A model generated the notes under the pieces. That model was not told the DNA's origin. It saw nothing but the letters and a program-made list of their open reading frames with translations, and searched no databases. This document shows, one piece after another, positions 11,371 to 31,400 of a stretch of DNA of 64,000 nucleotides; the stretch's first letter is position 1, and every line of letters begins with the position of its first letter. Made by a program: the position numbers and the translations under genes. This DNA is from Candidatus Moraniibacteriota bacterium (GTDB lineage: Bacteria; Patescibacteriota; Minisyncoccia; Moranbacterales; UBA1568): the NCBI GenBank assembly GCA_028711705.1, contig JAQTRS010000002.1, positions 9,617-73,616 of the forward strand, in the 5' to 3' direction.

Positions 11371-11408
11371 AAACAACGCCCGATAGCAATCCTGTCGGGC
11401 GGTTTTTT
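11371..11408. terminator. Rho-independent terminator (CGCCCGA-11nt-TCGGGCG then TTTTTT) that ends the small-ORF cluster. The uvrA2 stop lies at its T-tract edge
   Basis: A 7-bp GC-rich stem with a 6-T tract on the plus strand and A-rich sequence on the other side. Confidence 0.6.
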
Positions 11409-13956
11409 ATATACTCAGCACCCGTTTCAGGTATTCGCCGGTGTGTGAGCCTTTGGCATTAGCAACCTGTTCGGGCGTTCCCTTGGCGACCACTTTGCCG
11501 CCGCCTGATCCGCCTTCGGGTCCGATATCGATAAGATAGTCGGAACTTTTGATCACATCCATATTGTGCTCGATGAGAATCACCGAATTGCCCTTGTCCA
11601 CCAAACGCTGCAAAATCTCGATCAATTTTTTCACGTCCTCGTAGTGCAGGCCGATGGTCGGTTCATCCAAAAGATAAATCGTGCGCTGCAAATGCGGGCG
11701 ATAGAGTTCCGAAGATATCTTGATACGCTGCGCTTCCCCGCCCGAAAGCGTCGTGGCGGATTGACCAAGCTCCAGGTATTCCAAACCGACATCCCGAAGC
11801 GTCTTGAGCCGATCGGCGATGGCCGGGATATCCTTGAAGAATTCCGAGGCTTCCTCGACCGTCATCTTGAGCACATCGTAGATACTCTTTTTCTTATACT
11901 TCACCTCGAGCGTCTCCTTGGTGAAACGCTTGCCATCGCAAACATCGCACGGCACATAGACCGTCGGCAGAAAGTGCATCTCCACCGCGATCTCGCCATT
12001 CCCCTGACAGGTCTCGCAGCGCCCTCCCGGAACATTGAACGAGAATCGCCCAACCTTCCACCCGCGCACGCGAGCCTCGGCCGTCGAGGCATACAAATCG
12101 CGCACATGCGACCACATGCCGGTATAGGTTGCCGGATTGGAGCGTGGCGTGCGTCCGATCGGCGACTGATCGATCATCACGGCCCGGGTCAGGTATTCCG
12201 TCCCGCTCAGGCTCTTGCAATTGATGGCCTTATTATCTTTGTAGCGGCGATCGAAGCGCGCCTGCAGATTCTTGTGCACGATTTCATACAGAAATGACGA
12301 TTTCCCCGATCCGGACACGCCCGTCACGGTGATCAAACGCCCAAGCGGGATATCCACGTCCAAGTTCCGGATATTGAACACGCTGCCCCCGCGGACCTTG
12401 AGCGCGCCTTTTTCTTTGGTACGACGCACGGTCGGAACCTGGATTTTTTTCTCACCGCGAAGATACGAGAGCGTTACCGATCCCGATGCATTCGTCTTGG
12501 CCGTCAGCAATTGCTCCAGATCCCCCGACACCACGATATTGCCGCCATGCACGCCGGCCCCCGGTCCGATGTCGACCAGGTAGTCCGAGGCATAGATGGT
12601 GTCCTCGTCGTGCTCCACCACGATAATCGTGTTGCCCAGCTCGCGCAGACGTTTGAGAGTCGCAATAAGACGGTCATTGTCGCGCTGGTGCAGACCGATG
12701 GTCGGTTCATCCAATACATACAAGGCACCCACCAGCTGCGAACCGAGCTGCGACGCCAAACGGATGCGCTGCGCCTCCCCGCCCGAAAGGGTGTTGGCGC
12801 GCCGATCGAGCGAAAGGTAGTCCAAGCCGACATTCAACAGAAACTGCAGGCGGCTTTCGATTTCCTTCACCACCACGGCGGAAATTTTCTCCTCGCGCTC
12901 GGTCAATTCGAGCGTGGAAATGAACTCATAGGCGTCCCGGATGGTCGAGGCGGTATAGTCGATGATATTCTTGTCCCCCACCAAGACGAACAGAGCCTCC
13001 TCACGCAAACGGTGGCCATGGCAATCCTCGCAGACTTCCTCGCCGAAAAAGTGCTTGGTTCCCAAACCGTTGCATGTCGGGCAGGCGCCGTAGGGAGAAT
13101 TGAAACTGAACAGTCGCGGCTCCACCTCCGGATAGGAAAACCCATCATAGGGGCAGGAGAACTTCGACGACATCACGCGCTCTTCCCCGTCGAGGACGAT
13201 ACGGATCAACCCTTCGGTTTCCTCGAGCGCCTTGTCTATCGCCTCGTTCAATCGCTCCTGCGATCCGAACGCGTCGCTTTGAAATTCATCGAGCACGATC
13301 TCATCCACCAGCATATCGATATCATGCTTCTTGTTCTTGGACAGCACAACCTGATCGCGCAGGCTGCTCCGCACGCCGTCGATACGAGCCTCCACATATC
13401 CCTTGCTCAAGAAATCATACAGCATCTGATAATACTCCCCCTTGCGTCCGCGCACGATCGGCGCCCAGACTTGCAGCGTCGCAGGGACCTTGCTTTTCGC
13501 TTCGGGTTTTTCCTTGCGGTCGCTCACCATATCCACGATGAAATTCACCATCTCTTCGCTCGAGAGTTTCTTGATTTCCCGATTGCACACCAGACAATGC
13601 GGCCGCCCGATACGGGCATAGAGCACGCGCAAATAGTCATAGATTTCGGTGATGGTCGCCACCGTCGAGCGCGGATTGGACGAGCGGGATTTCTGGTCGA
13701 TGGAAATCGCAGGCGACAGCCCGGCAATCTCGTCCACATCCGGCTTCTGGAACTGATGCAGAAATTGCCGCGCATAGGTCGAGAGTGATTCCACGTAGCG
13801 GCGCTGCCCCTCGGCGAAAATGGTATCGAACGCCAAAGAGGACTTGCCCGACCCAGACAAACCCGTAAACACGATCATCTTGTTGCGAGGCATTTCGACC
13901 GTGATATTCTTGAGATTGTGCGTCCGAGCGCCCCGGACGATGATCGTATCCTGCAT
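11407..13956 (-). CDS. Second UvrA-family ABC ATPase (849 aa), about 93 aa shorter than the neighbouring UvrA. Candidate class II / UvrA2-like paralogue
   Basis: The N terminus [28 protein letters not shown] and tandem ABC modules resemble UvrA. The shorter length suggests the UvrB-binding/insertion domains are reduced. Confidence 0.8.
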   Translation of the reverse strand: MQDTIIVRGARTHNLKNITVEMPRNKMIVFTGLSGSGKSSLAFDTIFAEGQRRYVESLSTYARQFLHQFQKPDVDEIAGLSPAISIDQKSRSSNPRSTVATITEIYDYLRVLYARIGRPHCLVCNREIKKLSSEEMVNFIVDMVSDRKEKPEAKSKVPATLQVWAPIVRGRKGEYYQMLYDFLSKGYVEARIDGVRSSLRDQVVLSKNKKHDIDMLVDEIVLDEFQSDAFGSQERLNEAIDKALEETEGLIRIVLDGEERVMSSKFSCPYDGFSYPEVEPRLFSFNSPYGACPTCNGLGTKHFFGEEVCEDCHGHRLREEALFVLVGDKNIIDYTASTIRDAYEFISTLELTEREEKISAVVVKEIESRLQFLLNVGLDYLSLDRRANTLSGGEAQRIRLASQLGSQLVGALYVLDEPTIGLHQRDNDRLIATLKRLRELGNTIIVVEHDEDTIYASDYLVDIGPGAGVHGGNIVVSGDLEQLLTAKTNASGSVTLSYLRGEKKIQVPTVRRTKEKGALKVRGGSVFNIRNLDVDIPLGRLITVTGVSGSGKSSFLYEIVHKNLQARFDRRYKDNKAINCKSLSGTEYLTRAVMIDQSPIGRTPRSNPATYTGMWSHVRDLYASTAEARVRGWKVGRFSFNVPGGRCETCQGNGEIAVEMHFLPTVYVPCDVCDGKRFTKETLEVKYKKKSIYDVLKMTVEEASEFFKDIPAIADRLKTLRDVGLEYLELGQSATTLSGGEAQRIKISSELYRPHLQRTIYLLDEPTIGLHYEDVKKLIEILQRLVDKGNSVILIEHNMDVIKSSDYLIDIGPEGGSGGGKVVAKGTPEQVANAKGSHTGEYLKRVLSI

Positions 13957-15125: not shown

Positions 15126-16319
15126 TTACTGATGCCTCACGTCAAATAATGAAACCGGGATATCAATGTCCTTCGCCTTGACCATGAAATCGACGAAAAC
15201 GGATCGATTCAGATCGCTTGCTTGATCAGTATCGCTCCAGTACGACCAATCGGTCGCCTCCGCAAGCTGACTTTTATTTTCAGCGAATATATTCAACCAT
15301 ACGGAATAGCCTTTTTTCTGGGCCGATATGACCTCCGAGAGAATGCCGTTCAGAACATCTTTGCGTTTTCCGGGATCGACCGCTATCGTCATCTTTTCAT
15401 CCAATGTGTATTTCGAAGAGAAGCTTCCCGTATTAAACCAGATATCTTTCACTTCAAGCGTATCGGCGGCTTCCATAGCCAGGCGGGCATTCAGGTATTC
15501 ACGCGCATCAAACAGACCCACCCGTTCGGAACCGGCAGGCGGCGCCCATGGAAACCCCTGGATACCGAAACTGTCGACCAAGCCCTTCTTGATGCCGGAT
15601 ACATACGGAACCAGGCTGACATACTCGCCGCTCTCCCAGTTGAAGTCCTCATTGTCATATGTGGCCGAATTAAGCAGTACGCTCCCCTTCGCCTGAGGGA
15701 ATTCTTTTTTCAATGTGCCCAGGTATTTGTTCACGATAACCGAAAAATCTTTCGGGGTGGCGTTCTCATGGTTCCAATACGGCAAGTTCGCCTCGGGAAA
15801 CGGTACCCAGATACCCATCATATCATCCGTGACACCCTCAGCCTTGATGGCCTTGAAATAAGCTGTGATCCACTTATCGTAGAACCCGGTTCCGAATTCC
15901 TTGAAATCGATCAGTCCCCACTCATTCACGGGCTCGACGACCACGATCGGCGTCACATGGAACCGAGAGAATTCCTTCAGCGTCTCCGCCATTTTTTTCG
16001 CGGACTCGACGGCTCCATTCTTATCTTTCGGCATATCGGTAAAGAGCATGATCCTGTCGGTCACGAAAGAATCGCACACCGCCTGATACTCCGACAGCTT
16101 CAGAAGATGCGGGTCGGATGCCGACTCCAGATCGGTGATCTTCTCCCTATCCGAACATCGGCCCGCCGTCAAAGCGACCTGTTCGGAAACGGTCTTTTTC
16201 GGCAGCCTGATCACACTCCTGACATCGCGATCCGTCATCGAATGAAACACCAGCGTGAATGCGAAAACGGACAGGGCAAGGAATATGGATGAATAGGAAA
16301 GAATGCTTTTTACACTCAT
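15126..16319 (-). CDS. Membrane-anchored conserved protein, paralogue of 24368-25633 (motifs VPFPEAN, FGIQGFPW, WLNIFAENK…TDWSYW). Possibly a glycoside-hydrolase-like TIM-barrel enzyme for polysaccharide processing
   Basis: Clear paralogy with the 24368 gene. An N-terminal transmembrane segment. The start was chosen at the internal Met MSVKSIL; the ORF-track start at 16385 would overlap the GT2 gene. Confidence 0.55.
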   Translation of the reverse strand: MSVKSILSYSSIFLALSVFAFTLVFHSMTDRDVRSVIRLPKKTVSEQVALTAGRCSDREKITDLESASDPHLLKLSEYQAVCDSFVTDRIMLFTDMPKDKNGAVESAKKMAETLKEFSRFHVTPIVVVEPVNEWGLIDFKEFGTGFYDKWITAYFKAIKAEGVTDDMMGIWVPFPEANLPYWNHENATPKDFSVIVNKYLGTLKKEFPQAKGSVLLNSATYDNEDFNWESGEYVSLVPYVSGIKKGLVDSFGIQGFPWAPPAGSERVGLFDAREYLNARLAMEAADTLEVKDIWFNTGSFSSKYTLDEKMTIAVDPGKRKDVLNGILSEVISAQKKGYSVWLNIFAENKSQLAEATDWSYWSDTDQASDLNRSVFVDFMVKAKDIDIPVSLFDVRHQ

Positions 16320-16342
16320 ACCGTTGTCGTACGTTAATAATA

Positions 16343-17617
16343 TTAAATCGTGTCGGTCACTCCGGTCCGCTTCCATTTCTGCCACTCGACATCATCGCCG
16401 CGCAGCACCATCTTGAAACTCTTCAGCAATACCAGATATTCGACCCACACCAGGAAATAGAACAACGGCCACGTGAACGGAAACAGCAGAATCCTCCGCA
16501 AGGAGACGCCGTCGTGAGCGAAAAAAGCGTTGACCAGATAGATCACGAACACGAACAATGCGCCCAAAGTGATGGACAGGTAGTCCCCGGAAATGAAACT
16601 GTATGAGGCGAGAAACGTTATCGAGATGGGCTCGAAAAACAGCTGGATTTCCGCCAAAATAGAGAACGGCAGGATAAACCATGCCAAAAATATATTATGA
16701 TTCCTCCAATCCGTGGAAAAGAACATCCGGCGATATTTGAGGAACGTGTCCATGCGGCCTTTTTTCCAGCGCAAACGCTGGCTTATCAGACCGACTACAG
16801 TCGAAGCGCCCTCGGTATAGCAGATGACATTCTCCGCATAGGCGGAACGCAATCCGTTGAAGCGTATGCGCATCGACATCTCGATATCCTCTGTCTTATT
16901 GCTCGTATCGAAAAGGCCGAGCCTATCGAACACCGTCGCCTTGCGGAACGCGGCGCAAGCGCCTCCGAAAATATATTCCGCCCCCAACACGGAATGGGCA
17001 CGCTTGAAATAGAATCCGAAAAGATACTCGAGCCTTTGCGTGTAGCCGACCATGCTATGGTTCTTGGCGACACGGACATTCCCCACGACGGCATCGATCT
17101 TATCGTCCTCGAAATACTCGACCAGATTCGCTATGGCCCGCCTTTCGAGCGCCGAATCCGCATCGACCGTGACGATGATTTCTCCGGAAACTTTTCCGAT
17201 ACCGAAGTTGAGGGCTTCTCCCTTGCCTCCGTTTTCCTTATAGAAGTACTTCACCTTCGTGCTGTCCAGGTGCCTATTTTCAAGGTTCTTCCTGATGAAC
17301 TCCTTGACCACGGCATCGGAATCATCGGTCGATCCATCGTTTACGACGATAATCTCGATATTCTTATACGAGTTGCGCAGTATCGATTTGATAGTCTTGA
17401 GTATACCTACCCGTTCATTCCAGGCAGGGACGATGACGGAAACGAGGGGAAGGTATGCTCTTCCATGAATCTTACGTAGCTTTTTCAGCCGGATCCTGCG
17501 CATCGATTCCCTCATGGGATACAGCGGTGTTAAGAGCAAAAAGAGGTAATACTTCACCAACATCGCCGTAGCGAAAAAGAAAGCTATATTCTTGAATAGG
17601 TTGAAATACTCGTTCAT
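16343..17617 (-). CDS. Processive family-2 glycosyltransferase of the PgaC/IcaA/NodC type (N-terminal transmembrane segments, DxD, QRLRW)
   Basis: Motifs VIVPAWNE, VNDGSTD, VTVDADS and QRLRWKKG, plus a C-terminal transmembrane bundle. Confidence 0.8.
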   Translation of the reverse strand: MNEYFNLFKNIAFFFATAMLVKYYLFLLLTPLYPMRESMRRIRLKKLRKIHGRAYLPLVSVIVPAWNERVGILKTIKSILRNSYKNIEIIVVNDGSTDDSDAVVKEFIRKNLENRHLDSTKVKYFYKENGGKGEALNFGIGKVSGEIIVTVDADSALERRAIANLVEYFEDDKIDAVVGNVRVAKNHSMVGYTQRLEYLFGFYFKRAHSVLGAEYIFGGACAAFRKATVFDRLGLFDTSNKTEDIEMSMRIRFNGLRSAYAENVICYTEGASTVVGLISQRLRWKKGRMDTFLKYRRMFFSTDWRNHNIFLAWFILPFSILAEIQLFFEPISITFLASYSFISGDYLSITLGALFVFVIYLVNAFFAHDGVSLRRILLFPFTWPLFYFLVWVEYLVLLKSFKMVLRGDDVEWQKWKRTGVTDTI

Positions 17618-18306
17618 TTCTGTGTGTTTTGAATGCTTATGTACATACCTTGCAAGACATAGGTCAGACCGGTATCCTTATCCTCCATGATCAGGATCAG
17701 GGAGTTTGCGGCAGAATCGCCCTTCACATAGGGGTCGTCCGGATGAACGACGCTTCTGTTGGTGATGCGGAACATATATCGCCATCCGGTATCCGTATCC
17801 AAGAACAGGTTATCCCCTATCTTCAGATGCTCCGGCGTCGGGAATGTCCTCCAGCTCGCATTCGCGTATATCACGACATCACCGATATTGCCGTTTTTCC
17901 CATCACTCACGATGATATAATGGCCGTTATTAGCACGGTACAGCCAATCATCCCCGACAACGATCGATTCTATCAGATTGAGCTTGGAACTCATCGAGGG
18001 TATCTTCAGCATTTTCGGTTTCCCGAAGTTCCCGACCTTGCCCGCATCGATGTCTCGAACACCCTCATTCGGGCCGCCGACAATGCTATCGAGCGTCGTT
18101 TTGGAAGACAGTTTATCCAAGGCGTGGATATGCGGGATATCCTTATTGAAAAGCACCTCGATGCTATTCGCGAAAACAAACACCGTCAAAGAGGCGAAAA
18201 TCAGGCCGATAATCGCCATCTTGATCGCCGTCCACACTATTTTTAACGCCTTTTTAACAGCCATTGCAATATTTGTTGAATGATAAGAGAAATGATATTG
18301 ACACAC
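17614..18306 (-). CDS. Hypothetical membrane-anchored protein (start probably at the internal Met MAVKK at 18264)
   Basis: An N-terminal transmembrane segment and a 4-nt overlap with the GT2 gene (translational coupling). Confidence 0.45.
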   Translation of the reverse strand: MCQYHFSYHSTNIAMAVKKALKIVWTAIKMAIIGLIFASLTVFVFANSIEVLFNKDIPHIHALDKLSSKTTLDSIVGGPNEGVRDIDAGKVGNFGKPKMLKIPSMSSKLNLIESIVVGDDWLYRANNGHYIIVSDGKNGNIGDVVIYANASWRTFPTPEHLKIGDNLFLDTDTGWRYMFRITNRSVVHPDDPYVKGDSAANSLILIMEDKDTGLTYVLQGMYISIQNTQK

Positions 18307-18514
18307 AATATGCTTCCCAAAAAACCGGCATACAGCAACGCCAGAAGCTGGTATTGGGATGGTATCATCTGATAAAAATGCAGTATTTGCTCGTACATGA
18401 TCTTTGACACTAAATATAGCCGGCCAAAAAAGACTGACTGTATAGTGTATACCTAAATGATAATATCGTCAATAAAAAACGGTTTTTTGGTATATATACG
18501 CTATGTTTTTTCGG

Positions 18515-20527
18515 TTATTCCATCTGTGATGACATCTCGTCTACCGCTTGCTTACTGGTCAAAACCCGAACGCCTCGGGACTTGAGCCCGGCGAGAACCG
18601 TGTCCAGATGCGCCGGAGTATTCGACCAGGTCGTGCCATTGTCCACGATGTCATGGTAGACGATCGAAAGATTAGCGCCATCCTTGATGGCCTCATCCAC
18701 CCATGCCAGCACCGTTTCAGGAGATGTGGCCGAGGTAGCACTCATCGCGTGCACATTGTATCGGTCGTAATTATCCTTGGTATTGTATCCGACGTCGACC
18801 GACCTATGCGAGGCATAGAATTTCTTGATATGGGCCAAGACCTCGCTATTGTACTCGCCATACGGGGTGGCGAAACTTTCGACAGGAGCTCCCATATACT
18901 GCGCGATCGTATCCCGGGAAGTGCCGAGCTCATCATCCATCTGCGCAGGGGTCAACAGCGGCAGATGCGGATGGGAAATGGTGTGCGCCCCGATCTCGAA
19001 ACCATAATCTTGGATTTCATGCAATTGCGCCGACGTCATCAGCCCTGGCTTGTCCAGGTCCCCGCTCACCAAAAACATCGTTCCTACCATGCCGTACTTC
19101 TTGAAAAGCGGGAAGGCATTATCGTAGAAGGATGTGAAATAGTCATCGAACGTCAACGTCACGGACGGTTTTTTGAAAGGAACTATCGTCACCGGAGTAA
19201 GCGAATAGTCATCGGTGGTCAGGTATCCGGCGGAATATATGAGCGAATATATGGTGACCGATTTCGCATTCTTCGGCATCGAGATGCGTGTCGAAAACTT
19301 GCTCCATCCGGATGGGGACGGGTATACGACACCCAGATACTCATACTTGACCGTTCCGTCGGCCAGAGTGATTTCGGCATCCGTTTCCGCATACATATCG
19401 GACTTGTACTGCATCGAATACTCATACGTTCGATCCGCCTCGATCGTCTGCGGGGCGAACGAATAAAAAGCGACGCCGCTGGTATGCTGAGTAATCTTCA
19501 CCTGAAGGCTCCTTGAACCGGTGTGGCCTGTTTTGAGATACGAGAAAGTCGCGTTATTTGTTCCCGACTTCGTTTTCTTCCACGACAACGGAAGGGCCGC
19601 ATTGGCAGGATTGACCGTTTCAAGCGACGGATTCGGGATAATGTTCACCACCGGATCCGGTGTCGGAGGAGTCGGCAGGACTGGCGCATTATTCACGATG
19701 AAAGAAACGACGCTCGAGGTGGCGGCATTACCTGCCACATCGCGAGCACGCACGCTTACGGTATGCATCCCATCGGCAAGGGTCTTGGTATCAAGAACCA
19801 CGCTGTACGGAGCCGACGTGTCTTCGGATCCGAAGACCGTGTCGTCGATCATGAACTGCACGCCTGTGACTCCTCCGACATCGGATGCGTCCGCAGCCAG
19901 GGTCTGATCACCGGAGACGGTCGTCCCGGCAATCGGAGCAATCACCGCTGCCGTTGGAGGGACGATGTCCACTACCGGAGCAGAATCCCCTTTCTTGGAA
20001 AGCGAAAAATTATCAGTGAAAAGCGCTCCGAGAGATTTCATCCGGTGAATCACCGTGAATGATTTCGCATCGCTCGGAAGGGCAAATTCCACTTCAAGAC
20101 GCTTCCAGTCGGAGGAGGAAGCTATATCCGAGAGCAGCGTTGTCGTACTGACTTTCCCGCTCGTATTGGTTACTCGAACGAAAAGGCTTGTCGGCCCCGA
20201 AGCCTTATAGTATTCGTTGTACCGATACGAAGCCCCCGCATCAGCGCTTATGGGATTAAAGAACCATCCGGAATAACCCGCAACGTATTTCGTCACGGTA
20301 ATCCCAAGAGCCTTCGCTCCATCCTGCCCGTCGGCGTTCCTGTCGAATATCGCTGTGTTATTCCCCAACTTCTCCCTGGACCATCCGTTCGGAAAACCGC
20401 CCGTACCGATCTCGACGGAAGGATTGGCGATCAAATTATCATCCGCCACCGAATAATCGACGCTTCCTAAAAAAGATGCTGCCGCCACAACCACGAACAC
20501 CGCCAGATATTTTCTGATATTGAACAT
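18515..20527 (-). CDS. Secreted polysaccharide deacetylase (CE4/NodB domain, TLTFDDY…HTISHPHL) with two N-terminal carbohydrate-binding-like beta-sandwich modules and an Ig-like domain
   Basis: A signal peptide, a repeated module starting NP(S/T)(V/L)E…W, and CE4 motifs TFDD and H-x-x-x-H. Confidence 0.75.
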   Translation of the reverse strand: MFNIRKYLAVFVVVAAASFLGSVDYSVADDNLIANPSVEIGTGGFPNGWSREKLGNNTAIFDRNADGQDGAKALGITVTKYVAGYSGWFFNPISADAGASYRYNEYYKASGPTSLFVRVTNTSGKVSTTTLLSDIASSSDWKRLEVEFALPSDAKSFTVIHRMKSLGALFTDNFSLSKKGDSAPVVDIVPPTAAVIAPIAGTTVSGDQTLAADASDVGGVTGVQFMIDDTVFGSEDTSAPYSVVLDTKTLADGMHTVSVRARDVAGNAATSSVVSFIVNNAPVLPTPPTPDPVVNIIPNPSLETVNPANAALPLSWKKTKSGTNNATFSYLKTGHTGSRSLQVKITQHTSGVAFYSFAPQTIEADRTYEYSMQYKSDMYAETDAEITLADGTVKYEYLGVVYPSPSGWSKFSTRISMPKNAKSVTIYSLIYSAGYLTTDDYSLTPVTIVPFKKPSVTLTFDDYFTSFYDNAFPLFKKYGMVGTMFLVSGDLDKPGLMTSAQLHEIQDYGFEIGAHTISHPHLPLLTPAQMDDELGTSRDTIAQYMGAPVESFATPYGEYNSEVLAHIKKFYASHRSVDVGYNTKDNYDRYNVHAMSATSATSPETVLAWVDEAIKDGANLSIVYHDIVDNGTTWSNTPAHLDTVLAGLKSRGVRVLTSKQAVDEMSSQME

Positions 20528-20574
20528 AGCTTTCCATTACATCATTACATGAGACCACCATTCACCTTTCGCTC

Positions 20575-21777
20575 TTATTCTTTCTGAAACCATGGATTCC
20601 CACCCAAATGCCATACGGACACGGAGGTAATGCCCAAACTTTCTATCACCTTACGTTTTATACGCATACTCTCGCTATCCTGATAGAAATATACCACATC
20701 CCCTCGTCTCCACGTCATCTCGCCCGAATCGGCATCACGAACGGCCGTCTCAAACCCTTTCTCCTGCCTCAATTGCTCATATGTTAGGATGGTGATCTGA
20801 CTCTTCCTGATAGTGCCCTTGTATCCGTATGACGGGATACCCACGACGATTTTCCTTATGTCCGGAAGCTTTTCTTTCGTTCGAGCGATAACCTCCTTCA
20901 TCCATGGTATCGGAGCTATGGGTGTGCCCGTCCCATGATCGAATTGATAATCATAGAGCATGATAACGGCATAATCAACCGGCAAGACGGCCATATCCTC
21001 ATATCTCCATGAAAACCATCCCGCTTCTTCCTCATTCGCTATCGCCGGACCATCAATCATTAGTTTCTTGCCTTTTTTATGCAATGCGTCACCTAACGCA
21101 GAAACAAATTCCTTATACCTCGGGTATATATCCCCGGTCCATCCCCCAAAATCCTCGAAGTCAAGCTCAATGCCCGTCATGTCATTGTTCACCACGAACT
21201 CGACGAGTGTCCGTATCGTATCATCGCCTCCGAGCGACTTTCGTAAAAACACGTCCATATTCTTCGCATACGATGAGGAGACGGTCGCATACTGGCCTTT
21301 CGAATGCTTCTTCATACCCGCGACATTTTCGGGGGAATACCCGTTGCAGCCAGCTTCCTTTTCAGTGAGGAAAACGAGCTTTCCTTCGTCGGAGACCGTG
21401 AAATATTCTGATTTAAGCACATCCACTATGCCTATATTCGCATATTCGTCGGGAGCCTTGCACGCAGGCTCACCTGGATAGATCCAAGCCATCACCTCCG
21501 TCGTGTTTCGTGAATCCGTAGCGATTTTCGCAGCCGGGCCGGCTGGTGATACAGGCGCCTTAGAAACGGTTTTTTCGTTCGCATCCTCCGCAGGAATATT
21601 CCTGTCGGAAATGACCGGCGAAGAAGGTGTGCTACTACTGCCAAATGTATCGACAGGCGCCTCCTTTCCAGAAAAACATACGAAAACGACCTCGCCTACG
21701 ATTATGAGGCAGACCAAAGCGATGGCAATACTGTATTTTTTGCGATTCAAATCCGACATACGCCTCTTTTTTATCAT
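20575..21777 (-). CDS. Membrane-anchored GH18-like glycoside hydrolase (chitinase-like catalytic motif variant GIELDFEDFGGW)
   Basis: A DxxDxDxE-like motif in which one Asp is replaced by Glu; TIM-barrel-like length. Confidence 0.5.
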   Translation of the reverse strand: MIKKRRMSDLNRKKYSIAIALVCLIIVGEVVFVCFSGKEAPVDTFGSSSTPSSPVISDRNIPAEDANEKTVSKAPVSPAGPAAKIATDSRNTTEVMAWIYPGEPACKAPDEYANIGIVDVLKSEYFTVSDEGKLVFLTEKEAGCNGYSPENVAGMKKHSKGQYATVSSSYAKNMDVFLRKSLGGDDTIRTLVEFVVNNDMTGIELDFEDFGGWTGDIYPRYKEFVSALGDALHKKGKKLMIDGPAIANEEEAGWFSWRYEDMAVLPVDYAVIMLYDYQFDHGTGTPIAPIPWMKEVIARTKEKLPDIRKIVVGIPSYGYKGTIRKSQITILTYEQLRQEKGFETAVRDADSGEMTWRRGDVVYFYQDSESMRIKRKVIESLGITSVSVWHLGGNPWFQKE

Positions 21778-22466
21778 TGCTTCGCCGCCAATAAACGCTC
21801 CGCCAACGCCACATCATTGGGATTGCCGAAAGGCAGCCATCGGGTTGTCACTTCGACCATAACGGGATAATCCAAGCTCATCTTGACCAATGTCTGAGGC
21901 AAACCGAATTCCGTCTCGGATATCGGCACGGGCGGATAGGAGAAGAAATCCGTATTGAGAATATAGGCACCCGTATTCACCAACCCCTCCCCCAATCGAT
22001 GCGGCCGTTCTACCACACCCATCAGATGGTTCGCATCGTCAATCGTCACCAATCCAAAAGAGGCTGCATCCTGCGTATAATAACCGAGCAGGGCCAAGGG
22101 ATGCTGCATCAATTTCTCAATATCTTCGGTAGCATATATATCATCGCCCATCGTCACCAAGAATCGATCATACACCAGATCCTTCACGAAGTGCACCGCG
22201 CCTGCCGTACCGTTGAGCTCTCGCTGCTCGACATAGGTTATGGTCCGCCCGTTCCATTCATCGCCGAAATACTCCGTAATGACTTCCTTCCTGTATCCCA
22301 CAACCAAAATAACCTCATGGAAAGATGCGGGAAGCATATCTATCTTGTGTGCCAAAATGGGCAAACCCAGCACTTCGATCATCGGCTTCGGGAGTTCTTT
22401 CGTCAATTCACCCATACGGGTGCCCCGTCCAGCCGCCAAAATCACACATTGCATACCATTCATCAT
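21774..22466 (-). CDS. Sugar-1-phosphate nucleotidyltransferase (NTP_transferase family)
   Basis: The motif LAAGRGTRM (G-x-G-T-R); 230 aa; 4-nt overlap with the downstream gene. Confidence 0.75.
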   Translation of the reverse strand: MMNGMQCVILAAGRGTRMGELTKELPKPMIEVLGLPILAHKIDMLPASFHEVILVVGYRKEVITEYFGDEWNGRTITYVEQRELNGTAGAVHFVKDLVYDRFLVTMGDDIYATEDIEKLMQHPLALLGYYTQDAASFGLVTIDDANHLMGVVERPHRLGEGLVNTGAYILNTDFFSYPPVPISETEFGLPQTLVKMSLDYPVMVEVTTRWLPFGNPNDVALAERLLAAKQ

Positions 22467-22898
22467 TGAAGAATTACCTCACTTTTCCCATGTGCCGCCT
22501 TCATCCCGAGAAACAAAAACAGGATGGAGCGCGAATACGTTCCGCGTCATATCCTGCAATTTCCTCGCAAGCGACTTCCAACAACAACGATCCCGTTCCC
22601 GGTCTTAGGCATCCCTGAGACAGATTCAAAATACTGTCTTGCGCCAACAATCCTCGATCCCCCCTTCAATACTGGAACTATGATGGATATCTGCTTCATG
22701 CCCCTCAATACGGTATGTCGCTATTCGGTAGAAAAGCGCACTACAGATCGTTAAATAATTTCTTGCAAACCTTTCGTGTTGGTATTCTCTCTTGTCTGGT
22801 AATTACAGAATTGTATCAGCTGACCTGTATTTGTCAACAGAAAATAAGACCATAGATTGACAGGTTTGTCAGTTTTTGCGTTGGTATCGATACAAAAA

Positions 22899-22929
22899 AC
22901 AGCCCCTGTGCTACAGGAGGACTGTTTTT
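22899..22929. terminator. Bidirectional terminator (AAAAAACAGCCCCTGTGCTACAGGAGGACTGTTTTT)
   Basis: An imperfect stem flanked by A and T tracts, just downstream of the minus-strand CE4 gene. Confidence 0.5.
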
Positions 22930-22945
22930 GTGGGTACGCAGCGGT

Positions 22946-24127
22946 TTATTGCTGCATCATTCCTATTCCCTGGCTGAGCGTCACGGTCTTGACGTTCTGG
23001 GCTTTGATATAGTCGACCATGGTCTTAAGGAGCGCCGGGTCATTGCTGAATTCCCCGCCATTCACATCCTGGCGATGCATTTCGAATATCACCCACTGCT
23101 TCTTGGCGACCGCATTATCGATCCATCCCTTGATGGTCGGCCAGGTCACGTCGGACGTGATATGCTGGTCACGCAATTTGTATCTATCAGTCAATGGACT
23201 GTTATACCCCTCATCCACACTTCGTGCCCCGATATATCCAGCATTTTTTACCAACGTGATAATCGAATCATTATAGGTGCCGTATGGGTAGACGAGTGAA
23301 GTCGCAGTGATACCCAAATTTTGCAGATTAACTTTCGACTGATTGATTTCCTTCTTCGCTTGAGCATTGGTAAGTATCGTGAGGTCGGGATGTGTCTGGG
23401 TATGTGAAGCGATTTCATGTCCCCTGGCAGCCATGTCCTTGATTTGTGAGGTTGTCACATATTCCGGTTCTGAGAGATACTTCGTGATAATCGCCTGGGT
23501 GCTTTTGATGCCGGCTGCATCGAGAATCGGCAGCCCATTTGCATAAGTGCTTTTGAAACCGTCATCGAAAGAAAAAGTTACCATCCCTTGGGCAAATTCC
23601 GCCTTCTGACTGACAAGACTTACATCATCAATGGTCAATTGTCCCACTTTGTCGATCAAATGAAACACCGTGAGCGCAGCAACGCCAGTCGGAACGACGA
23701 TAGAAGCTTGCGTCTGTTTCCATGTCGTACCGGTCTTGGGAACGGCTGCCAGATATTCATACTGATACGAATCATCGGTCATGTGGTATTGGGCCACAAG
23801 AGCCGTATCGACATTGGATTTGTACCAATCCGAGAAAAGATACTCCTCCCCCGCATTGACGGCTACTTCGTCGAAATACCATTTGGCATCGCCGTCAGTA
23901 TAGGCGGTGATGGCGACTTTGGCGGCACGGGTGCTTGAGTGTCCGGCGACCGGATAGGTGAACTTCGGCGTGTTGCTCCCCCAGGAGTCGCCCGACCAAA
24001 ACTGCGGATTGGTCCCATCCGCTGTTTCAAGTGTCGGATTTGGCACGAGGTTAGTCGTTGCGGCCGAGGCTGTTGCGATAGGATTCGTTACAAGTACGGC
24101 GAGCAAGAAAACGAGTAGTTTCTTCAT
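22946..24127 (-). CDS. Secreted polysaccharide deacetylase (CE4) with an N-terminal CBM-like beta-sandwich. Paralogous to the C-terminal half of the 18515-20527 protein
   Basis: A signal peptide MKKLLVFLLAVLV and the motifs VTFSFDDG and HTQTHPDL. Confidence 0.75.
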   Translation of the reverse strand: MKKLLVFLLAVLVTNPIATASAATTNLVPNPTLETADGTNPQFWSGDSWGSNTPKFTYPVAGHSSTRAAKVAITAYTDGDAKWYFDEVAVNAGEEYLFSDWYKSNVDTALVAQYHMTDDSYQYEYLAAVPKTGTTWKQTQASIVVPTGVAALTVFHLIDKVGQLTIDDVSLVSQKAEFAQGMVTFSFDDGFKSTYANGLPILDAAGIKSTQAIITKYLSEPEYVTTSQIKDMAARGHEIASHTQTHPDLTILTNAQAKKEINQSKVNLQNLGITATSLVYPYGTYNDSIITLVKNAGYIGARSVDEGYNSPLTDRYKLRDQHITSDVTWPTIKGWIDNAVAKKQWVIFEMHRQDVNGGEFSNDPALLKTMVDYIKAQNVKTVTLSQGIGMMQQ

Positions 24128-24299
24128 ACTGCATATCCTAAAAAAATTATACGCCATCCCATATCTCTTGTTTTTTGTTTTACATAAGCTTGTTCGTTAA
24201 AGAATTACATACGAAACAGGCCTCATTTATTGCCCTTTTGAGTAAACAATACACATTTTTTTCCAAAAAATCAACCTATTTTATACTGAAATAAAAGGG

Positions 24300-24328
24300 T
24301 TGTTTCCAACGTAGCAATCAAGTATAAT
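24300..24328 (+). promoter_or_regulatory. Candidate promoter TTGTTT-17-TATAAT for the 24368 gene
   Basis: Read directly in an AT-rich divergent intergenic region. Confidence 0.35.
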
Positions 24329-24367
24329 CAAAGTACAAAAAATAACGGTTTTTTTAACGGTGTTTTT

Positions 24368-25633
24368 ATGAAAAAAGATACAAAATATCCTTTTGTTTCG
24401 TTTGCGTTTTTTTCGTCCATGATACTTTTGCTCCCGCTCATTTCCTACTCTTGCTACCTGAGAAGCGGCACTTCGGCGGACGCAGAAGAAGAGCCAATCA
24501 TAACGGAAGCGCCTACACCATCGACAGACACACTCTCAGCGATTCCTGCGGAAGCCGCTCTTGCTGCAGCGCCATCGAACGCACCCGACACACTCGTGCC
24601 AGGCGAGGCGCAACCGCGAGCGATAGAAACATTCAAACCGCTCGATCTTACGGGTGCAAATGACGAACAACTCAAAAAATTAAGCGCCTATCAAAATGCG
24701 CTCGGCGGTTTTGTGACCAATCAATTGATGGTATTCGTAGATATGCCACAGACATCTTCGGGTATCAAAAAGTCCGCAAGGTATATCGCTCAAACATCCG
24801 ATGAATTTGCCAGACACGGAGTCACGCCTATCTTCATCTTCGAACCGATAGACGAGAAAGATCGATCGCTCAACCTCAAGAAAGTGGCCGAGGGAAAATA
24901 CCAAAAAAACCTCGATCAGCTTTTCGCTGAAATCCAAAAATCCGGTGCGGTCGAAAAAAATCTCGGTATCTTCGTCCCTTATCCGGAAGCCAATACTTCT
25001 GCTTGGGATAGGAGCGATTCTTCGCCAGAAGAATTCCCCGCCATATTCAACGCCTTTTTTGATACGGCCAAAAAATACTACCCGCACATACGAGGCAGCA
25101 TCCTCCTTGATACCAAAACCTACCCCATCAACGACAACGATTGGGAACACGGACGAGTCCAAAGCTTTGCGCCGTATCTCACCGGTATAAACCCGGAGCA
25201 CGTCAGCAGCTTCGGTCTCCAGGGCTTTCCTTGGTCCGATGAGCACCTGCAAGGCAAAGATTTCGACGCGCACAACTTCCTGCCGACATCCATCGCCACC
25301 GAAGCTGCCTCTATCCTCCATACCGACACGATATGGCTCAATACTGGAACATTTCGAGAAATGTATACCATCGGCAATTCCCCGGTAAGCGCCGATGAAC
25401 GGGCTCAGATATTCCAGTCCATTCTCGGCCAGGCAAACGCCCTCACCTCGCAAGGCTTCAAAACCTGGATCAATATCTTCGCCGAAAACAAGATGGCCGT
25501 CGACGAAAAAACCGATTGGTCCTATCTTGATGCAACCCAGAACAAAACCCTCAGCCCTCACGAATCTGCCCTCAAAAAATTTATCGATGATGCGCGCGGT
25601 TCGGGCGTAGCGCTTTCACTCTTTGACCTTTGA
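24368..25633 (+). CDS. Membrane-anchored conserved protein, paralogue of 15126-16319
   Basis: Shared motifs VPYPEAN, FGLQGFPW and WINIFAENK…TDWSYL. Confidence 0.6.
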   Translation: MKKDTKYPFVSFAFFSSMILLLPLISYSCYLRSGTSADAEEEPIITEAPTPSTDTLSAIPAEAALAAAPSNAPDTLVPGEAQPRAIETFKPLDLTGANDEQLKKLSAYQNALGGFVTNQLMVFVDMPQTSSGIKKSARYIAQTSDEFARHGVTPIFIFEPIDEKDRSLNLKKVAEGKYQKNLDQLFAEIQKSGAVEKNLGIFVPYPEANTSAWDRSDSSPEEFPAIFNAFFDTAKKYYPHIRGSILLDTKTYPINDNDWEHGRVQSFAPYLTGINPEHVSSFGLQGFPWSDEHLQGKDFDAHNFLPTSIATEAASILHTDTIWLNTGTFREMYTIGNSPVSADERAQIFQSILGQANALTSQGFKTWINIFAENKMAVDEKTDWSYLDATQNKTLSPHESALKKFIDDARGSGVALSLFDL

Positions 25634-25645
25634 TACCCGATCGCT

Positions 25646-26542
25646 TCAGCGGATCGAGAGCGTTGATTTCGGCTGGATGATGTCTTCAAACGTCGTAAAT
25701 GTCACATCATTGTCCACCAGCGTCTTTAATAGGACCTCATAGTTTTCTGTGTATTTTTGCATATCGAGGTTGCCGTTTTCGTCGGCATACTCCTGCGGAT
25801 GCAGCATGATTACGCATGGCCTTCCAACAGCGAATATCTTTTCACACGTATCGACAACGCCTTTGATCGGTATCATCTGCTGCGTTGCGAAGTCATACGG
25901 CGACGTCACATAATCGAAGAGGTTCTTTCCTTCCGAGGAATTAACCGAAAAACCCTCATCGCGTACAGCTCTCTTTCCCTCATCGGAAATAAGGTTGAAA
26001 GGCGGGATAAATGTCGTCAGCGGCTTGTTTGATATGAGACTCAGCGCTTTTTTACCCAAATCGATCCGGCGTATCGCATCATCATACCCGATCTGTCCGA
26101 ATTCCGTCAGATACACATGATTCGATGGATCATATTCCCCTCCGGAATGATCCCAGCCATGCATCGCGATTTCCATATTGCAACGATTCCTTTTGAGAAA
26201 ATGCATCATGCTCGTATCTTTTTCAATGTCCTTGGGAATCACGCCCGCCACGATGGGCACACCGTATTTGAAAGCCCCTCGCATAAGGCTCATCGAAACA
26301 TCCCGCCACGCATACGATTGAACATCATCGAGCCGCAGCACCACGAGCTTGCGCCCCACAAGCGCCGATGGCCTATCGGCCTGCTGTATACACACGGCAT
26401 CCCGAGCGATATCGATTACGCTTGTATCGTCGTGATAGGCGCTGTTGAGAAAATACACAACACTCCCTCCGGAAAACAACAGTACGATCAACACGATAAT
26501 GCTGCTTACGAGATAACTTTTACGGCCTTGAGGAGTTTCCAT
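25646..26542 (-). CDS. Membrane-anchored putative divergent polysaccharide deacetylase-like protein
   Basis: An N-terminal transmembrane segment. VVLRLDDV and HGWDH loosely resemble CE4 motifs. Confidence 0.4.
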   Translation of the reverse strand: METPQGRKSYLVSSIIVLIVLLFSGGSVVYFLNSAYHDDTSVIDIARDAVCIQQADRPSALVGRKLVVLRLDDVQSYAWRDVSMSLMRGAFKYGVPIVAGVIPKDIEKDTSMMHFLKRNRCNMEIAMHGWDHSGGEYDPSNHVYLTEFGQIGYDDAIRRIDLGKKALSLISNKPLTTFIPPFNLISDEGKRAVRDEGFSVNSSEGKNLFDYVTSPYDFATQQMIPIKGVVDTCEKIFAVGRPCVIMLHPQEYADENGNLDMQKYTENYEVLLKTLVDNDVTFTTFEDIIQPKSTLSIR

Positions 26543-26620
26543 ACGAGGATAATAAAGATATGGGTTACGAAAGTGAAACCGAGCAAAAAATTCATGTTCA
26601 TACGGGTGCGGTTATGCCTG

Positions 26621-27697
26621 TTAAAAAGAGACGCGATCCACCTTTTGCCACACAAGATCGCGCCTGTTCAACACTATCTCTTTGACGAATTCGGTGCTGA
26701 TGATGAATGCATTGATAAACACTATCAGAACATACGCCGGGAAAAATAAGAGCAATTCATAGCGATGGCCTTTGATGCTCGCGTACAAAGCGAAGAGAAA
26801 CGCATTCAGAAAATACATCGGGAGTATGAAGGTGAAGAACGCCTTCGGATTGGCCAAAGGCATGATGAACAGAAGCATACTGTAAAACACGCCGTCCAGA
26901 AAGATGCACGAGAGCTCGAATGCCGCCGCAGGACGATGGAAGACTATCGGGTAATACTTCCGGATATTCTGCCACCCGCCGCCATACCAGCGCCGCATCT
27001 GCCGAATATAGGAGGGCAGATTGGGCGGATCCTGGGTATACACCTTGGCATCTTCGGCATAGATGATCTTAAGACCCTTCAGGTGCAGCTGGAACGTGAA
27101 ATCCAAGTCCTCGGTCACAGTGTCGTGATTGAACGACAGGCCTCGCAGCACTTCGGTGCGCATGGCCGTCGCACACCCCGGCATCACGAACATGTAGTTG
27201 ATGATCGACTGCGCTTTCTTGAAAATCCCCTGGCCCACGATATAGTCGATCGCCCGGCAGGCCGTCAGCCAATTATGCTTAAGGCTGCACACATAGCCGC
27301 CCACCGCACCCACCTCGCGCTTCTCATCGCTCAAAAACGCCGCTTCTATCCGCTCGACGAAATGCTCGTCGATAATCGTGTCCGCATCCGTCATCACAAC
27401 CACATCCCCGGTCACGCTCGGGAGTCCGGCCTCTTGAGCCTTACTTTTGTTGCCGGTGTTGATGACCAGGTTTATCGCATGTATAACCGCGTGTTCGCTT
27501 GCAAATGACGCGAGAATCTTTTGTGTCCCATCCGTGCTGCCGTCATTGACCACGACGATCTGATCCAATGGACGCGTCTGAACAAGAGCGGACTCGAGGC
27601 ACTTTCGAAGACCCTTTTCTTCGTTATGACATGGGATAAGGAGCGAGATTTTCATAGATGCCATATCATGCCATTCGCACCGTCCAAGCTCCATCAA
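26621..27697 (-). CDS. Second processive GT2 synthase (PgaC/NodC-like; LLIPCHNE, DAD, QMRRW)
   Basis: Motif set as given. A C-terminal transmembrane bundle. The likely start is the internal Met MKISLL at 27655. Confidence 0.8.
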   Translation of the reverse strand: MMELGRCEWHDMASMKISLLIPCHNEEKGLRKCLESALVQTRPLDQIVVVNDGSTDGTQKILASFASEHAVIHAINLVINTGNKSKAQEAGLPSVTGDVVVMTDADTIIDEHFVERIEAAFLSDEKREVGAVGGYVCSLKHNWLTACRAIDYIVGQGIFKKAQSIINYMFVMPGCATAMRTEVLRGLSFNHDTVTEDLDFTFQLHLKGLKIIYAEDAKVYTQDPPNLPSYIRQMRRWYGGGWQNIRKYYPIVFHRPAAAFELSCIFLDGVFYSMLLFIMPLANPKAFFTFILPMYFLNAFLFALYASIKGHRYELLLFFPAYVLIVFINAFIISTEFVKEIVLNRRDLVWQKVDRVSF

Positions 27698-27997: not shown

Positions 27998-28798
27998 CTA
28001 ATGATCCTCATCATCCCCATGTTCATGCGAGTTCTCGCCATGTTCATGATCATGTTCATGATCGTCATCATCCTCTTCATCTTTGCATATCGAGAAAAGA
28101 TCCACCGTTTCAACCTCGCTTTTCCACTCATCGTTCTGCTCCCTTACAGCCTGCACCTGAAGAAAATGGCTTCGTTTTGAGACAGGAAGACAATCCCTCT
28201 CTTCCGTGTCATATTCCTCCCCGCCATCGATAGGGTCATCATCATCATCGGAAAATTCATAATAAATACGGGTATCCGGAAGCGAAGCGGACAGGCGAAT
28301 ACAGAAGGAATCTTTTTCATCCTTCTTATCTGCATCCCTATCCTTATCTTTGTCATCTTTTTCATTATCCTTTTTTTCATCATCATGCCTATCACCATCA
28401 TCCGCATGATCTTCTGGATGCTCTTTGCCATGTCCATCTCCCTCGTCATCCCCATCTTGGCCATGCTCCTTTTGATTCCTCTTGTCATTATCCCCATCGC
28501 CATCATCTTTTTTGGTATGCTCTTTATTTCCATCATTCCCATCTCCACCCTCATCCTGATCATTATCTTCGCAATCCTCTTTGCTCCCATCTTTATCACA
28601 TTCGACATCGATTATCACCTCCGGTATCCACTCGCCCGTTTGCACAAGCAGGTTCTTCGTAATATCATGCGCGGAAAAATATGCCATCGTCAACGCGAAG
28701 CTCTCCTGTTTCAACACCAACGCGAAAATACTCAAAGAAAACAAGGTTATTCGCAAGTATCGTTTGAAAAAATGGGTTGTTTTCTGCCAAGGGAGCAT
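27998..28798 (-). CDS. Signal/transmembrane-anchored hyper-acidic Asp/Glu/His/Lys-rich low-complexity protein (…DDDDHEHDHEHGENSHEHGDDEDH)
   Basis: Its start (MLPWQ…) lies 8 nt after the sipW-like stop. The frame was chosen over overlapping low-complexity frames because of this coupling and the N-terminal hydrophobic segment. Confidence 0.5.
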   Translation of the reverse strand: MLPWQKTTHFFKRYLRITLFSLSIFALVLKQESFALTMAYFSAHDITKNLLVQTGEWIPEVIIDVECDKDGSKEDCEDNDQDEGGDGNDGNKEHTKKDDGDGDNDKRNQKEHGQDGDDEGDGHGKEHPEDHADDGDRHDDEKKDNEKDDKDKDRDADKKDEKDSFCIRLSASLPDTRIYYEFSDDDDDPIDGGEEYDTEERDCLPVSKRSHFLQVQAVREQNDEWKSEVETVDLFSICKDEEDDDDHEHDHEHGENSHEHGDDEDH

Positions 28799-28808
28799 AA
28801 GGGTTTTG

Positions 28809-29528
28809 TTAGACGACTTTTCGGCGTGGCGCGGGCGGCGGCATAGGCTGCCTTGTCTTTGGCTGCGGCGGGACGCTCGCTTTGGCCATCGGCACATACC
28901 GCGGCATACTCATCGCATCCGACATCATGATTCTGCCGATAGGCGGATGCTCCCATTTTTTCTGCGGCGGAAAATCATGGGCGGGGCGCACTCCGGATAC
29001 GGGCCCATTCTGCCGGACGATTTTTCTTTTTTTTAGTATCTTGTATATATTGATCGATTCATCACAAATAATGAACATCATCGGGATAATAATAAGCAGG
29101 ATAAAGCCGGGCTTGCTCTTGGAAAAATGTACGGGATAACCGGCGTACGGAAGGATATACGCCACCTTGCCGACGATGTCGGACTGTTTCACGTCATCCT
29201 CATCCATAAGCTCATTGGCATCGCCTTTGGTATGATAGATGATTGCATCATCTTGCTGGAACTTCCCTATGATCCTGTGCGTCACGGTCACGCTTTCGTC
29301 TCCCACTCGGCGCGTCACCACATCCCCTACCCAATACTCCTGCATCGGCCTCGTCACGATGAAGCTCCCTGTCTTGATCGCCGGCTCCATCGACCCGGAC
29401 AAAACCGTAAACGTGAAGATGTTCGCTTTGTGCGAAAAGATCGAGACACCGACAATAAACATGACCACGAGCGCAAGCGTCGCTGTGCCATACCAGATGA
29501 AATTGATTATGGAGCGTATGACAGCCAT
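28809..29528 (-). CDS. SipW-type (archaeal/eukaryotic-like) type I signal peptidase with a Pro-rich basic C-terminal tail
   Basis: The catalytic motif LSGSMEP (identical to the Bacillus SipW SGSMEP) and an N-terminal transmembrane segment. Confidence 0.7.
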   Translation of the reverse strand: MAVIRSIINFIWYGTATLALVVMFIVGVSIFSHKANIFTFTVLSGSMEPAIKTGSFIVTRPMQEYWVGDVVTRRVGDESVTVTHRIIGKFQQDDAIIYHTKGDANELMDEDDVKQSDIVGKVAYILPYAGYPVHFSKSKPGFILLIIIPMMFIICDESINIYKILKKRKIVRQNGPVSGVRPAHDFPPQKKWEHPPIGRIMMSDAMSMPRYVPMAKASVPPQPKTRQPMPPPAPRRKVV

Positions 29529-29603
29529 AGGAAATGACCGGTGTTATGTTTTTGACCAGCCGCCCCTTTATCGTCAAAAGAGGCAGCAGAGAAAACCACA
29601 ATA

Positions 29604-31381: not shown

Positions 31382-31400
31382 AATAGTATCGATAGGTTAT

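Follow-up and report, generated by a model that had tools for sequence, protein, structure and literature searches.

What surface polymer is made by the genes at positions 15126-27697 of the 64,000-nucleotide stretch of a Candidatus Moraniibacteriota contig analyzed here (the window), and what is done to it by parA and parB, two related anchored proteins of no known family that are encoded among them? Our analysis points to two synthase-dependent surface-polymer modules of the N-acetylglucosamine (GlcNAc) type, whose product would lose some of its acetyl groups outside the membrane and be processed by an anchored barrel protein of the family to which parA and parB belong, which we call famX; we give this interpretation a slightly better than even chance. 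Bacteria of the Candidate Phyla Radiation (CPR), or Patescibacteria, are abundant episymbionts, most of them not in culture, and next to nothing is known of their surface chemistry; a conserved, lineage-restricted GlcNAc-type polymer module is a concrete candidate for what they use in attachment or in the envelope.

The two famX proteins, parA (15126-16319, minus strand) and parB (24368-25633, plus strand), are 37% identical over 343 aa (E 3e-78), and each possesses one N-terminal hydrophobic helix. They are thus true paralogues anchored in the membrane, as had been proposed from the sequence alone (hereafter the sequence-only reading). That reading could not place them in a known family, and neither could we: both lack any Pfam or NCBIfam match, searching PDB sequences with either protein or with the family profile returned noise only (Grainyhead, TPR designs, E>=0.09), and a comparison of 46 aligned famX members with Pfam at E<=10 gave no recurrent family and no carbohydrate-active family. 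AlphaFold2 models built on the family alignment reached a mean confidence (pLDDT) of 90.8 for parA and 85 for parB, with values >90 in the parB core residues 95-421. Both models consist of a membrane helix, a disordered linker (Pro/Ala-rich in parB) and eight β/α units that form an extracytoplasmic (β/α)8 barrel. Foldseek searches of the PDB with the two models retrieved glycoside hydrolases (GHs) of families GH5, GH53 (galactanases), GH39 (PslG), GH1, GH26, GH113, GH10, GH30 and GH158, the top matches having E values of 1e-7 to 1e-5 and a probability of 1.0. The parA matches included GH1, GH26, GH53, GH39 and GH5, those of parB GH5, GH53 and the GH39 enzyme PslG, and the two best viral structural matches were also GH5 enzymes. 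The sole entry outside clan GH-A in the two top-50 lists was a D-psicose 3-epimerase, at rank 50 for parA. These data indicate that the pair adopts a hydrolase-type fold, with clan GH-A glycosidases as the nearest structures, and the sequence-only reading thereby passes the fold test that it had set for the pair.

famX is a small and sharply bounded family, with 287 clusters at E<=1e-3 and 216 at E<=1e-30 in a profile search of 1.84 billion representative proteins, and it is almost confined to CPR bacteria. In contigs representing one genome per species in GTDB, 58 famX loci were found, nearly all of them in Saccharibacteria/Saccharimonadales and the remainder in a few Gracilibacteria, Paceibacterota and unclassified Patescibacteria. 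Only two loci were labelled as lying outside CPR, L008 in a Pseudomonadales metagenome-assembled genome (MAG) and L051 in an Acidoferrum MAG. Both are on contigs of 7-10 kb with CPR-type synteny and a synthase gene like GT2a (described below) adjoining famX, and L051 also has a pseudo-sortase gene (described below); these are probably mis-binned contigs rather than true occurrences.

To examine the gene neighborhoods, all open reading frames (ORFs) of 59 related loci were searched with the window proteins. Within 8 kb of famX, a PgaC-like synthase of glycosyltransferase family 2 (GT2) was encoded in 45 of the 59 loci and a deacetylase of carbohydrate esterase family 4 (CE4) in 33, and at least one of the two was present in 52. 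Three gene orders recur around famX, two of which are present in the window. In the type 1 order (14 loci), a pseudo-sortase gene, an orthologue of GT2a (530-610 bits) and a parA-type famX gene (370-446 bits) abut on one strand, exactly as at 15126-18264 of the window, where parA, a member of the type 1 subfamily, starts 23 nt after GT2a. In the type 2 order (16-18 loci), famX is convergent with a large CE4 gene encoding two carbohydrate-binding modules (CBMs), followed by an ORF of 55-60 aa, a real sortase gene and a GT2b-like synthase gene. In the type 3 order (four loci, of which three are labelled Gracilibacteria and one 'Patescibacteria group'), a parB-type famX gene is accompanied by a CE4b-like gene, a DUF2334 gene and a GT2b orthologue, which is the order at 22946-27697 of the window. 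The window thus holds two modules side by side, pseudo-sortase/GT2a/parA with CE4a upstream and CE4b/parB/DUF2334/GT2b. The sequence-only reading had described the interval as one system with many tailoring enzymes; the related loci instead resolve it into two separately conserved modules plus a GH18/nucleotidyltransferase gene pair specific to this genome. In four loci, L004, L006 and L017 (labelled Gracilibacteria) and L007 (labelled 'Patescibacteria group'), the GT2b, DUF2334 and famX orthologues appear split into several ORFs under translation table 11. Gracilibacteria use a genetic code in which UGA is recoded, and the splits fit such recoding, so that the counts for these four loci are conservative. 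In the literature on poly-β-1,6-GlcNAc (PNAG), deacetylases and sortases of Saccharibacteria and Patescibacteria, on pseudo-sortases and on DUF2334, we found no description of this module.

The synthases bear on what the modules produce. GT2a (16343-17617, minus strand; Pfam GT2 E 8e-35) and GT2b (26621-27694, minus strand; E 3.5e-30) are membrane-embedded processive GT2 enzymes sharing only 24% identity with each other. Both retain every catalytic motif expected of such a synthase, namely VNDGS, DAD, TED and QRLRW in GT2a and VNDGS, DAD, TED and QMRRW in GT2b, so the sequence-only reading also passes its test for conserved catalytic residues. The top NCBIfam model for both is PgaC_IcaA (TIGR03937), and the second best is TIGR03111, a model of XrtG-associated GT2 enzymes. 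Compared with Escherichia coli PgaC, GT2a is 29% identical over 369 aa (E 2e-40) and GT2b 30% identical over 228 aa. Both GT2s are predicted to have the C-terminal transmembrane (TM) helices that characterize PgaC/IcaA synthases, and in GT2b the predicted TM helices are C-terminal only. Because PgaC_IcaA is the best model, the identities to PgaC reach 29-30% and the neighboring CE4 and GH18 enzymes belong to families acting on N-acetylated sugars, the polymerized sugar is most likely of the GlcNAc type.

Deacetylation of such a polymer outside the membrane is suggested by three further proteins. CE4a (18515-20527, minus strand) has a signal peptide, a CBM4_9-like module, a Big_7 domain, a CBM_4_9 module and a CE4 domain (PF01522 E 5e-26, Big_7 E 1e-14, CBM_4_9 E 5e-8); the Big_7 Ig domain lies between the two CBM4_9-type modules, of which the N-terminal one matches CBM_4_9 only weakly. 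CE4b (22946-24157, minus strand) combines a CE4 domain (PF01522 E 2.7e-26) with a signal peptide and a single CBM4_9-like module. Its module matches Pfam CBM_4_9 weakly (E 3.6e-4) and is homologous to both modules of CE4a (E 1e-24 and 2e-22). The CE4 domains score 91.5 (CE4a) and 92.4 bits (CE4b) against a PF01522 gathering score of 23.1, and the Asp-His-His metal triad and catalytic motifs are present as TFDD and HTISH in CE4a and FSFDD and HTQTH in CE4b. In the motif 3 region, which was compared by eye and not by structural alignment, CE4a reads ATPYG and CE4b VYPYG, both without the Arg of the RxPY position. Pfam domains, signal peptides and motifs therefore agree with the earlier description of these proteins as two secreted CE4 deacetylases with N-terminal CBM-like modules. 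The protein encoded at 25646-26542 (minus strand), which the sequence-only reading had called a divergent deacetylase-like protein, is a membrane-anchored, CE4-like putative deacetylase of the DUF2334 family (PF10096 E 5.9e-11, 42.8 bits against a gathering score of 26) with the motifs RLDD and HGWDH, and it is labelled a DUF2334 domain-containing protein at NCBI.

The remaining pair of the interval consists of a GH18 enzyme and a sugar-1-phosphate nucleotidyltransferase. The GH18 protein (20575-21777, minus strand; PF00704 E 3e-13, 50.6 bits against a gathering score of 29.6) is membrane-anchored and of the YdhD/SleL type, matching the PDB sequences 5jh8, 4wiw, YdhD (3cz8) and SleL (4s3j) in alignments that run through the DFE motif. 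Its catalytic motif had been described as a variant one. Indeed, the first two Asp residues of DxxDxDxE are replaced in TGIELDFE, but the last D-x-E is retained as in the solved YdhD/SleL-type GH18 structures, and the motif is therefore not very unusual. The nucleotidyltransferase (21774-22466, minus strand) is a cytoplasmic protein whose NTP_transferase domain (E 4e-24) bears out the earlier assignment. It has no acetyltransferase domain, its best NCBIfam match is the N-terminal half of archaeal GlmU (157 bits, under the cut-off), and its stop codon overlaps the GH18 start by 4 nt. The pair was seen in none of the 59 related loci, which suggests that both genes are add-ons specific to this genome.

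These enzymes could also be read as scavenging machinery, in which famX, the CE4 enzymes and GH18 attack the wall of a host or environmental chitin or peptidoglycan and so supply GlcNAc to an auxotrophic episymbiont. CPR bacteria are host-dependent, and uptake of GlcNAc is known from Saccharimonadia (PMC9530719). The GH18 enzyme is of the peptidoglycan-active YdhD/SleL type, and the CBMs would fit binding to an insoluble substrate. However, famX is conserved beside a synthase and not beside transporters or catabolic genes, and famX, GH18 and DUF2334 are all anchored to the membrane of the producer. We consider scavenging quite improbable.

Several observations weigh against the proposal that famX processes a GlcNAc-type polymer made by PgaC-like synthases. 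Firstly, the GT2 assignment is distant: GT2a reaches 171.5 and GT2b 128.1 bits with the PgaC_IcaA model, whose equivalog cut-off is 422.3. The motifs and the best model thus agree with the sequence-only reading, which had called the synthases PgaC/NodC-type, but the scores fall far short of true PgaC/IcaA proteins. Since both GT2s score so far below this cut-off, the GlcNAc monomer and either linkage, β-1,6 or β-1,4, stay putative. Secondly, GH18 enzymes cleave β-1,4 GlcNAc linkages and not β-1,6 linkages, and the presence of GH18 in the interval would speak against strict PNAG and towards a β-1,4 polymer. Thirdly, Pfam, NCBIfam, PDB and hhalign comparisons gave no sequence-level tie between famX and any GH family, the hhalign probability of the famX profile being 0.4% with E. 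coli PgaB (GH153) and <1% with the GH1 enzyme BglA, and the Foldseek TM-scores (template-modelling scores) of the barrels are about 0.45-0.52. Finally, the residues that define catalysis in clan GH-A, an acid/base Glu (usually in Asn-Glu) ending β4 and a nucleophile Glu ending β7, lack conserved counterparts in famX. We examined these positions in an alignment of 158 members, using parB numbering and mapping conservation on predicted secondary structure rather than by superposition. Residue 248 at the end of β4 (242-248) is D in 87 of 158 sequences and N in 59, otherwise S or E, and is followed by S, T or A. Residue 373, the E of 'FAENK' located two residues past β7 (365-371), is E in 97 and Q in 38 of the 158, and members derived from genomes also have R, G, Y, L, F or P there. 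FAENK was accordingly dropped as a candidate GH-A nucleophile motif, given the replacement of E373 by any of these residues in many members. As the catalytic positions typical of the clan vary among famX proteins, hydrolase activity is plausible only. Of the earlier suggestion that the pair may be a new hydrolase family, the unclassified status and the GH-A-like fold stand, whereas the catalytic residues of that clan do not.

A different set of residues is fully conserved. When 58 sequences (56 from the related loci plus parA and parB) were aligned with HMM guidance, seven polar residues proved invariant: E159 at the end of β2, E207 and N209 in a 'PExN' motif just past β3, Q285 in β5, N325 in β6, R345, and E380 in the loop after β7, nine residues past the strand; D420 in β8 is nearly invariant. 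Every one of the invariant polar residues maps to the C-terminal side of the barrel, which is the active-site side in TIM barrels. In the predicted structure they would form a strongly acidic pocket, which could suit a cationic deacetylated hexosamine chain.

The missing acid/base and nucleophile could also suggest that famX is a degenerate glycosidase fold serving as a non-catalytic polysaccharide-binding or co-polymerase subunit of the synthase, similar to BcsB, PgaD or IcaD. The location of the famX gene directly behind the synthase gene in 14 loci would agree with this, as would the fact that the adjoining sortase homologue is itself a dead enzyme. Seven invariant polar residues, including three Glu, on the active-site face of 58 out of 58 sequences are nevertheless beyond the usual demands of binding, and we judge a non-catalytic role improbable.

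The sortase homologue just mentioned is encoded at 17614-18264 (minus strand), by a gene absent from the sequence-only reading. It is a membrane-anchored protein of 216 aa with a sortase fold, whose Pfam Sortase match (PF04203 E 0.0034, 17.6 bits) lies below the gathering score of 26.6. An alignment of the window protein with 11 type 1 orthologues, however, matched the real sortases of the type 2 loci with an hhalign probability of 97.5% (E 4.9e-12). In the window protein, IYGHY is changed to IYANA and QTCSG to MEDKD, and the catalytic His, Cys and Arg are all substituted. The TLxTC motif is missing in 14 of 14 orthologues, and His, Cys and Arg are replaced in all of them. The ORF was accordingly dropped as a candidate active sortase. 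Its stop codon overlaps the GT2a start by 4 nt. By sequence, the protein is an enzyme that has been conserved in a dead state and whose translation is coupled to that of GT2a, and it is probably a structural accessory of the GT2a synthase. A motif scan across the window found no credible LPxTG-type substrate ORF, and no small ORF of this kind lies between the pseudo-sortase and CE4a genes.

Live sortases occur in the related Saccharibacteria loci. Directly upstream of the real sortase, all 18 sortase-bearing loci have an ORF of 55-60 aa (e.g. L002:12157-12321 and L003:12155-12331) with the pattern MYGK...ATG(V/I)..LPxTG, then a TM helix and a basic tail; a signal peptide is lacking, and LPxTG comes after just ~17-25 residues. 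The product looks like a minimal sortase substrate inside a GT2/CE4/famX module. Sortases, dead in some of these modules and live beside a mini LPxTG peptide in others, thus recur next to famX, and polysaccharide synthesis may be tied to sortase-type anchoring in a way that has not been described.

Such cell-wall-anchoring machinery nearby, present with its mini-peptide in 18 of 18 related loci, also bears on the possibility that famX is a transglycosylase or cell-wall ligase which moves the nascent chain onto peptidoglycan or another polymer. Anchored clan GH-A enzymes of GH17 and GH72, as well as the GH16 Crh enzymes, have transfer roles in fungal walls. The GH-A-like fold, membrane anchoring and tight coupling of famX to a synthase would be compatible with transfer, and its non-canonical residue set could mean altered chemistry. 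On the other hand, the sequence favors transfer no more than hydrolysis, and the known clan GH-A transglycosylases keep the β4 and β7 glutamates, which famX is without. We regard a transferase role as unlikely, though it deserves some weight.

Our preferred interpretation remains that famX processes the polymer made by its neighboring synthase. In each module, a PgaC-like membrane-embedded GT2 would polymerize and translocate a hexosamine polymer, most likely of GlcNAc, with the dead sortase homologue assisting GT2a in one of them. Some acetyl groups would be stripped outside the membrane by a CBM-bearing CE4 or by the CE4-like DUF2334 enzyme, and the anchored famX protein (parA or parB) beside the synthase would then cut or shorten the chain, which partial deacetylation would have made cationic. 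This role may be likened to those of PslG, the C-terminal domain of PgaB and Sph3/Ega3 in other synthase systems. Judging from sequence conservation and the models, catalysis could involve some of the invariant carboxylates (E159, E207 and E380) instead of the canonical β4 and β7 glutamates. The about 290 famX clusters, all of them annotated as 'hypothetical', would constitute a new CAZy family whose active-site layout differs from that of clan GH-A in spite of the common fold.

A bolder version, which we put forward as speculative and rather doubtful, is that famX is a new GH or transglycosylase family with a GH-A-like barrel and a relocated catalytic centre (E159 on β2, E207 after β3 and E380 after β7) and with a specificity for a GlcNAc polymer that is cationic through partial deacetylation. 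famX and the sortase or pseudo-sortase would be components of a CPR-specific machine that attaches polysaccharide to the cell surface, which in Saccharibacteria would include the LPxTG mini-peptide. If this is true, the GlcNAc polymer could be host-adhesion material of episymbionts.

In total, ORF listing and scans with Pfam and NCBIfam identified 10 genes with the stated domains in 15126-27697, among them every gene listed in the sequence-only reading. From high to low coordinates, the minus strand carries GT2b, DUF2334, CE4b, the nucleotidyltransferase, GH18, CE4a, the pseudo-sortase, GT2a and parA, and parB is the sole plus-strand gene of the interval. The two famX genes had been described as a convergent pair, but they lie 8 kb apart and are divergent, with parA on the left (minus) and parB on the right (plus); parB is convergent with the DUF2334 gene, the two stop codons being separated by 12 nt. 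A hydropathy scan showed a signal peptide or a single N-terminal anchor in all of the proteins except the GT2s and the nucleotidyltransferase. The NCBI record contains the same proteins in a 'Candidatus Moranbacteria bacterium' MAG under locus tags PHT88_01775 to about 01815, in which parA (PHT88_01775), parB (PHT88_01810) and the 216-aa pseudo-sortase are each named 'hypothetical protein'. Scanning the window for Rfam families and tRNAs gave no matches, and the 479-bp gap at 22467-22945 contains no convincing ORF.

The whole stretch from 15 to 44 kb is given to the cell surface. Next to the interval, the regions 28809-30197 and 27998-28687 (both minus strand) encode a SipW-like S24/S26 signal peptidase (E 2.4e-5) with an adjoining 197-aa Peptidase_M73 protein (TasA/camelysin-like, E 1.4e-9), which by sequence constitute a TasA/SipW-type fiber pair in a CPR genome, and, beside this pair, an extremely acidic, D/E/K/H-rich low-complexity protein. 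A third synthase-type module follows at 30605-37161 (minus strand). It comprises a third QxxRW GT2 just outside the interval (31401-32930; 509 aa, cellulose-synthase-like, with QQRRW), an HlyD-like protein (258 aa), a 684-aa protein with ~9 TM helices and no Pfam match, and a GH81 endo-β-1,3-glucanase (718 aa, E 2e-62), and its product is probably a β-glucan. The genes at 37300-43514 (minus strand) encode a right-handed β-helix protein, a class A penicillin-binding protein with transglycosylase and transpeptidase domains, a C39-like peptidase and an M23 peptidase with CARDB. Elsewhere in the window, UvrB (45693-49346, minus strand) is split by an intein with a LAGLIDADG homing-endonuclease domain, and a UvrA-like gene (11407-13956) and a UvrC gene (8681-9928) are also present.

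In terms of gene content, the modules resemble several known systems without coinciding with any of them. Exosortase/PEP-CTERM is a protein-sorting system linked to exopolysaccharides (PMC1569441). It likewise has a sorting transpeptidase encoded within a polysaccharide locus, but the window homologue has a sortase rather than an exosortase fold and has lost His, Cys and Arg. NodC/NodB also combine a QxxRW GT2 with a CE4, the NodC and NodB models match GT2a, GT2b and the CE4 proteins, and a β-1,4 product would fit the presence of GH18. However, the window scores of 73 and 60 bits compare with a cut-off of 550, and the window CE4s are secreted and CBM-bearing whereas the substrates of NodB are short oligomers in the cytoplasm.

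The pgaABCD/icaADBC systems share with the window a GT2 synthase with D, DxD, TED and QxxRW and an extracytoplasmic CE4, and PgaB also has a dedicated TIM-barrel hydrolase domain. In contrast, the window GT2s reach 171 and 128 bits against 422, no PgaD/IcaD or PgaA homologue was recognized among the called genes of the window, the window CE4s carry CBM4_9 and Ig modules, GH18 with its β-1,4 chemistry is present, and hhalign found no similarity between famX and the GH153 domain of PgaB. PslG (GH39) of Pseudomonas aeruginosa is, like famX, an N-terminally anchored (β/α)8 hydrolase-type protein encoded inside an exopolysaccharide operon, and it gives the highest TM-scores and lowest root-mean-square deviation (rmsd) among the structural matches (TMq 0.50-0.52, rmsd 5.3-5.8 Å). 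The sequence identity is only 11-12%, the catalytic pair of PslG on β4 and β7 corresponds to variable positions in famX, and Psl is made by a Wzx/Wzy-type and not a synthase pathway.

The Aspergillus galactosaminogalactan cluster (Gtb3, Agd3, the GH135 enzyme Sph3 and the GH166 enzyme Ega3) and the Pel system with its GH114 enzyme PelA represent a layout of synthase, CBM-bearing deacetylase and two anchored (β/α)8 hydrolases for the acetylated and the deacetylated (cationic) stretches. The acidic pocket of famX would similarly suit a cationic polymer. However, the 46 famX sequences have no Pfam GH114 or GH135 match at E<=10, proteins of these systems are not among the top 50 famX Foldseek matches, and the sugars differ, being N-acetylgalactosamine and galactosamine. 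The logic of a synthase, a deacetylase and a dedicated hydrolase is thus already known from other systems; new here are a CPR-restricted, unclassified barrel family with a non-canonical set of conserved residues, its fixed association with a PgaC-like synthase, and a sortase or pseudo-sortase component.

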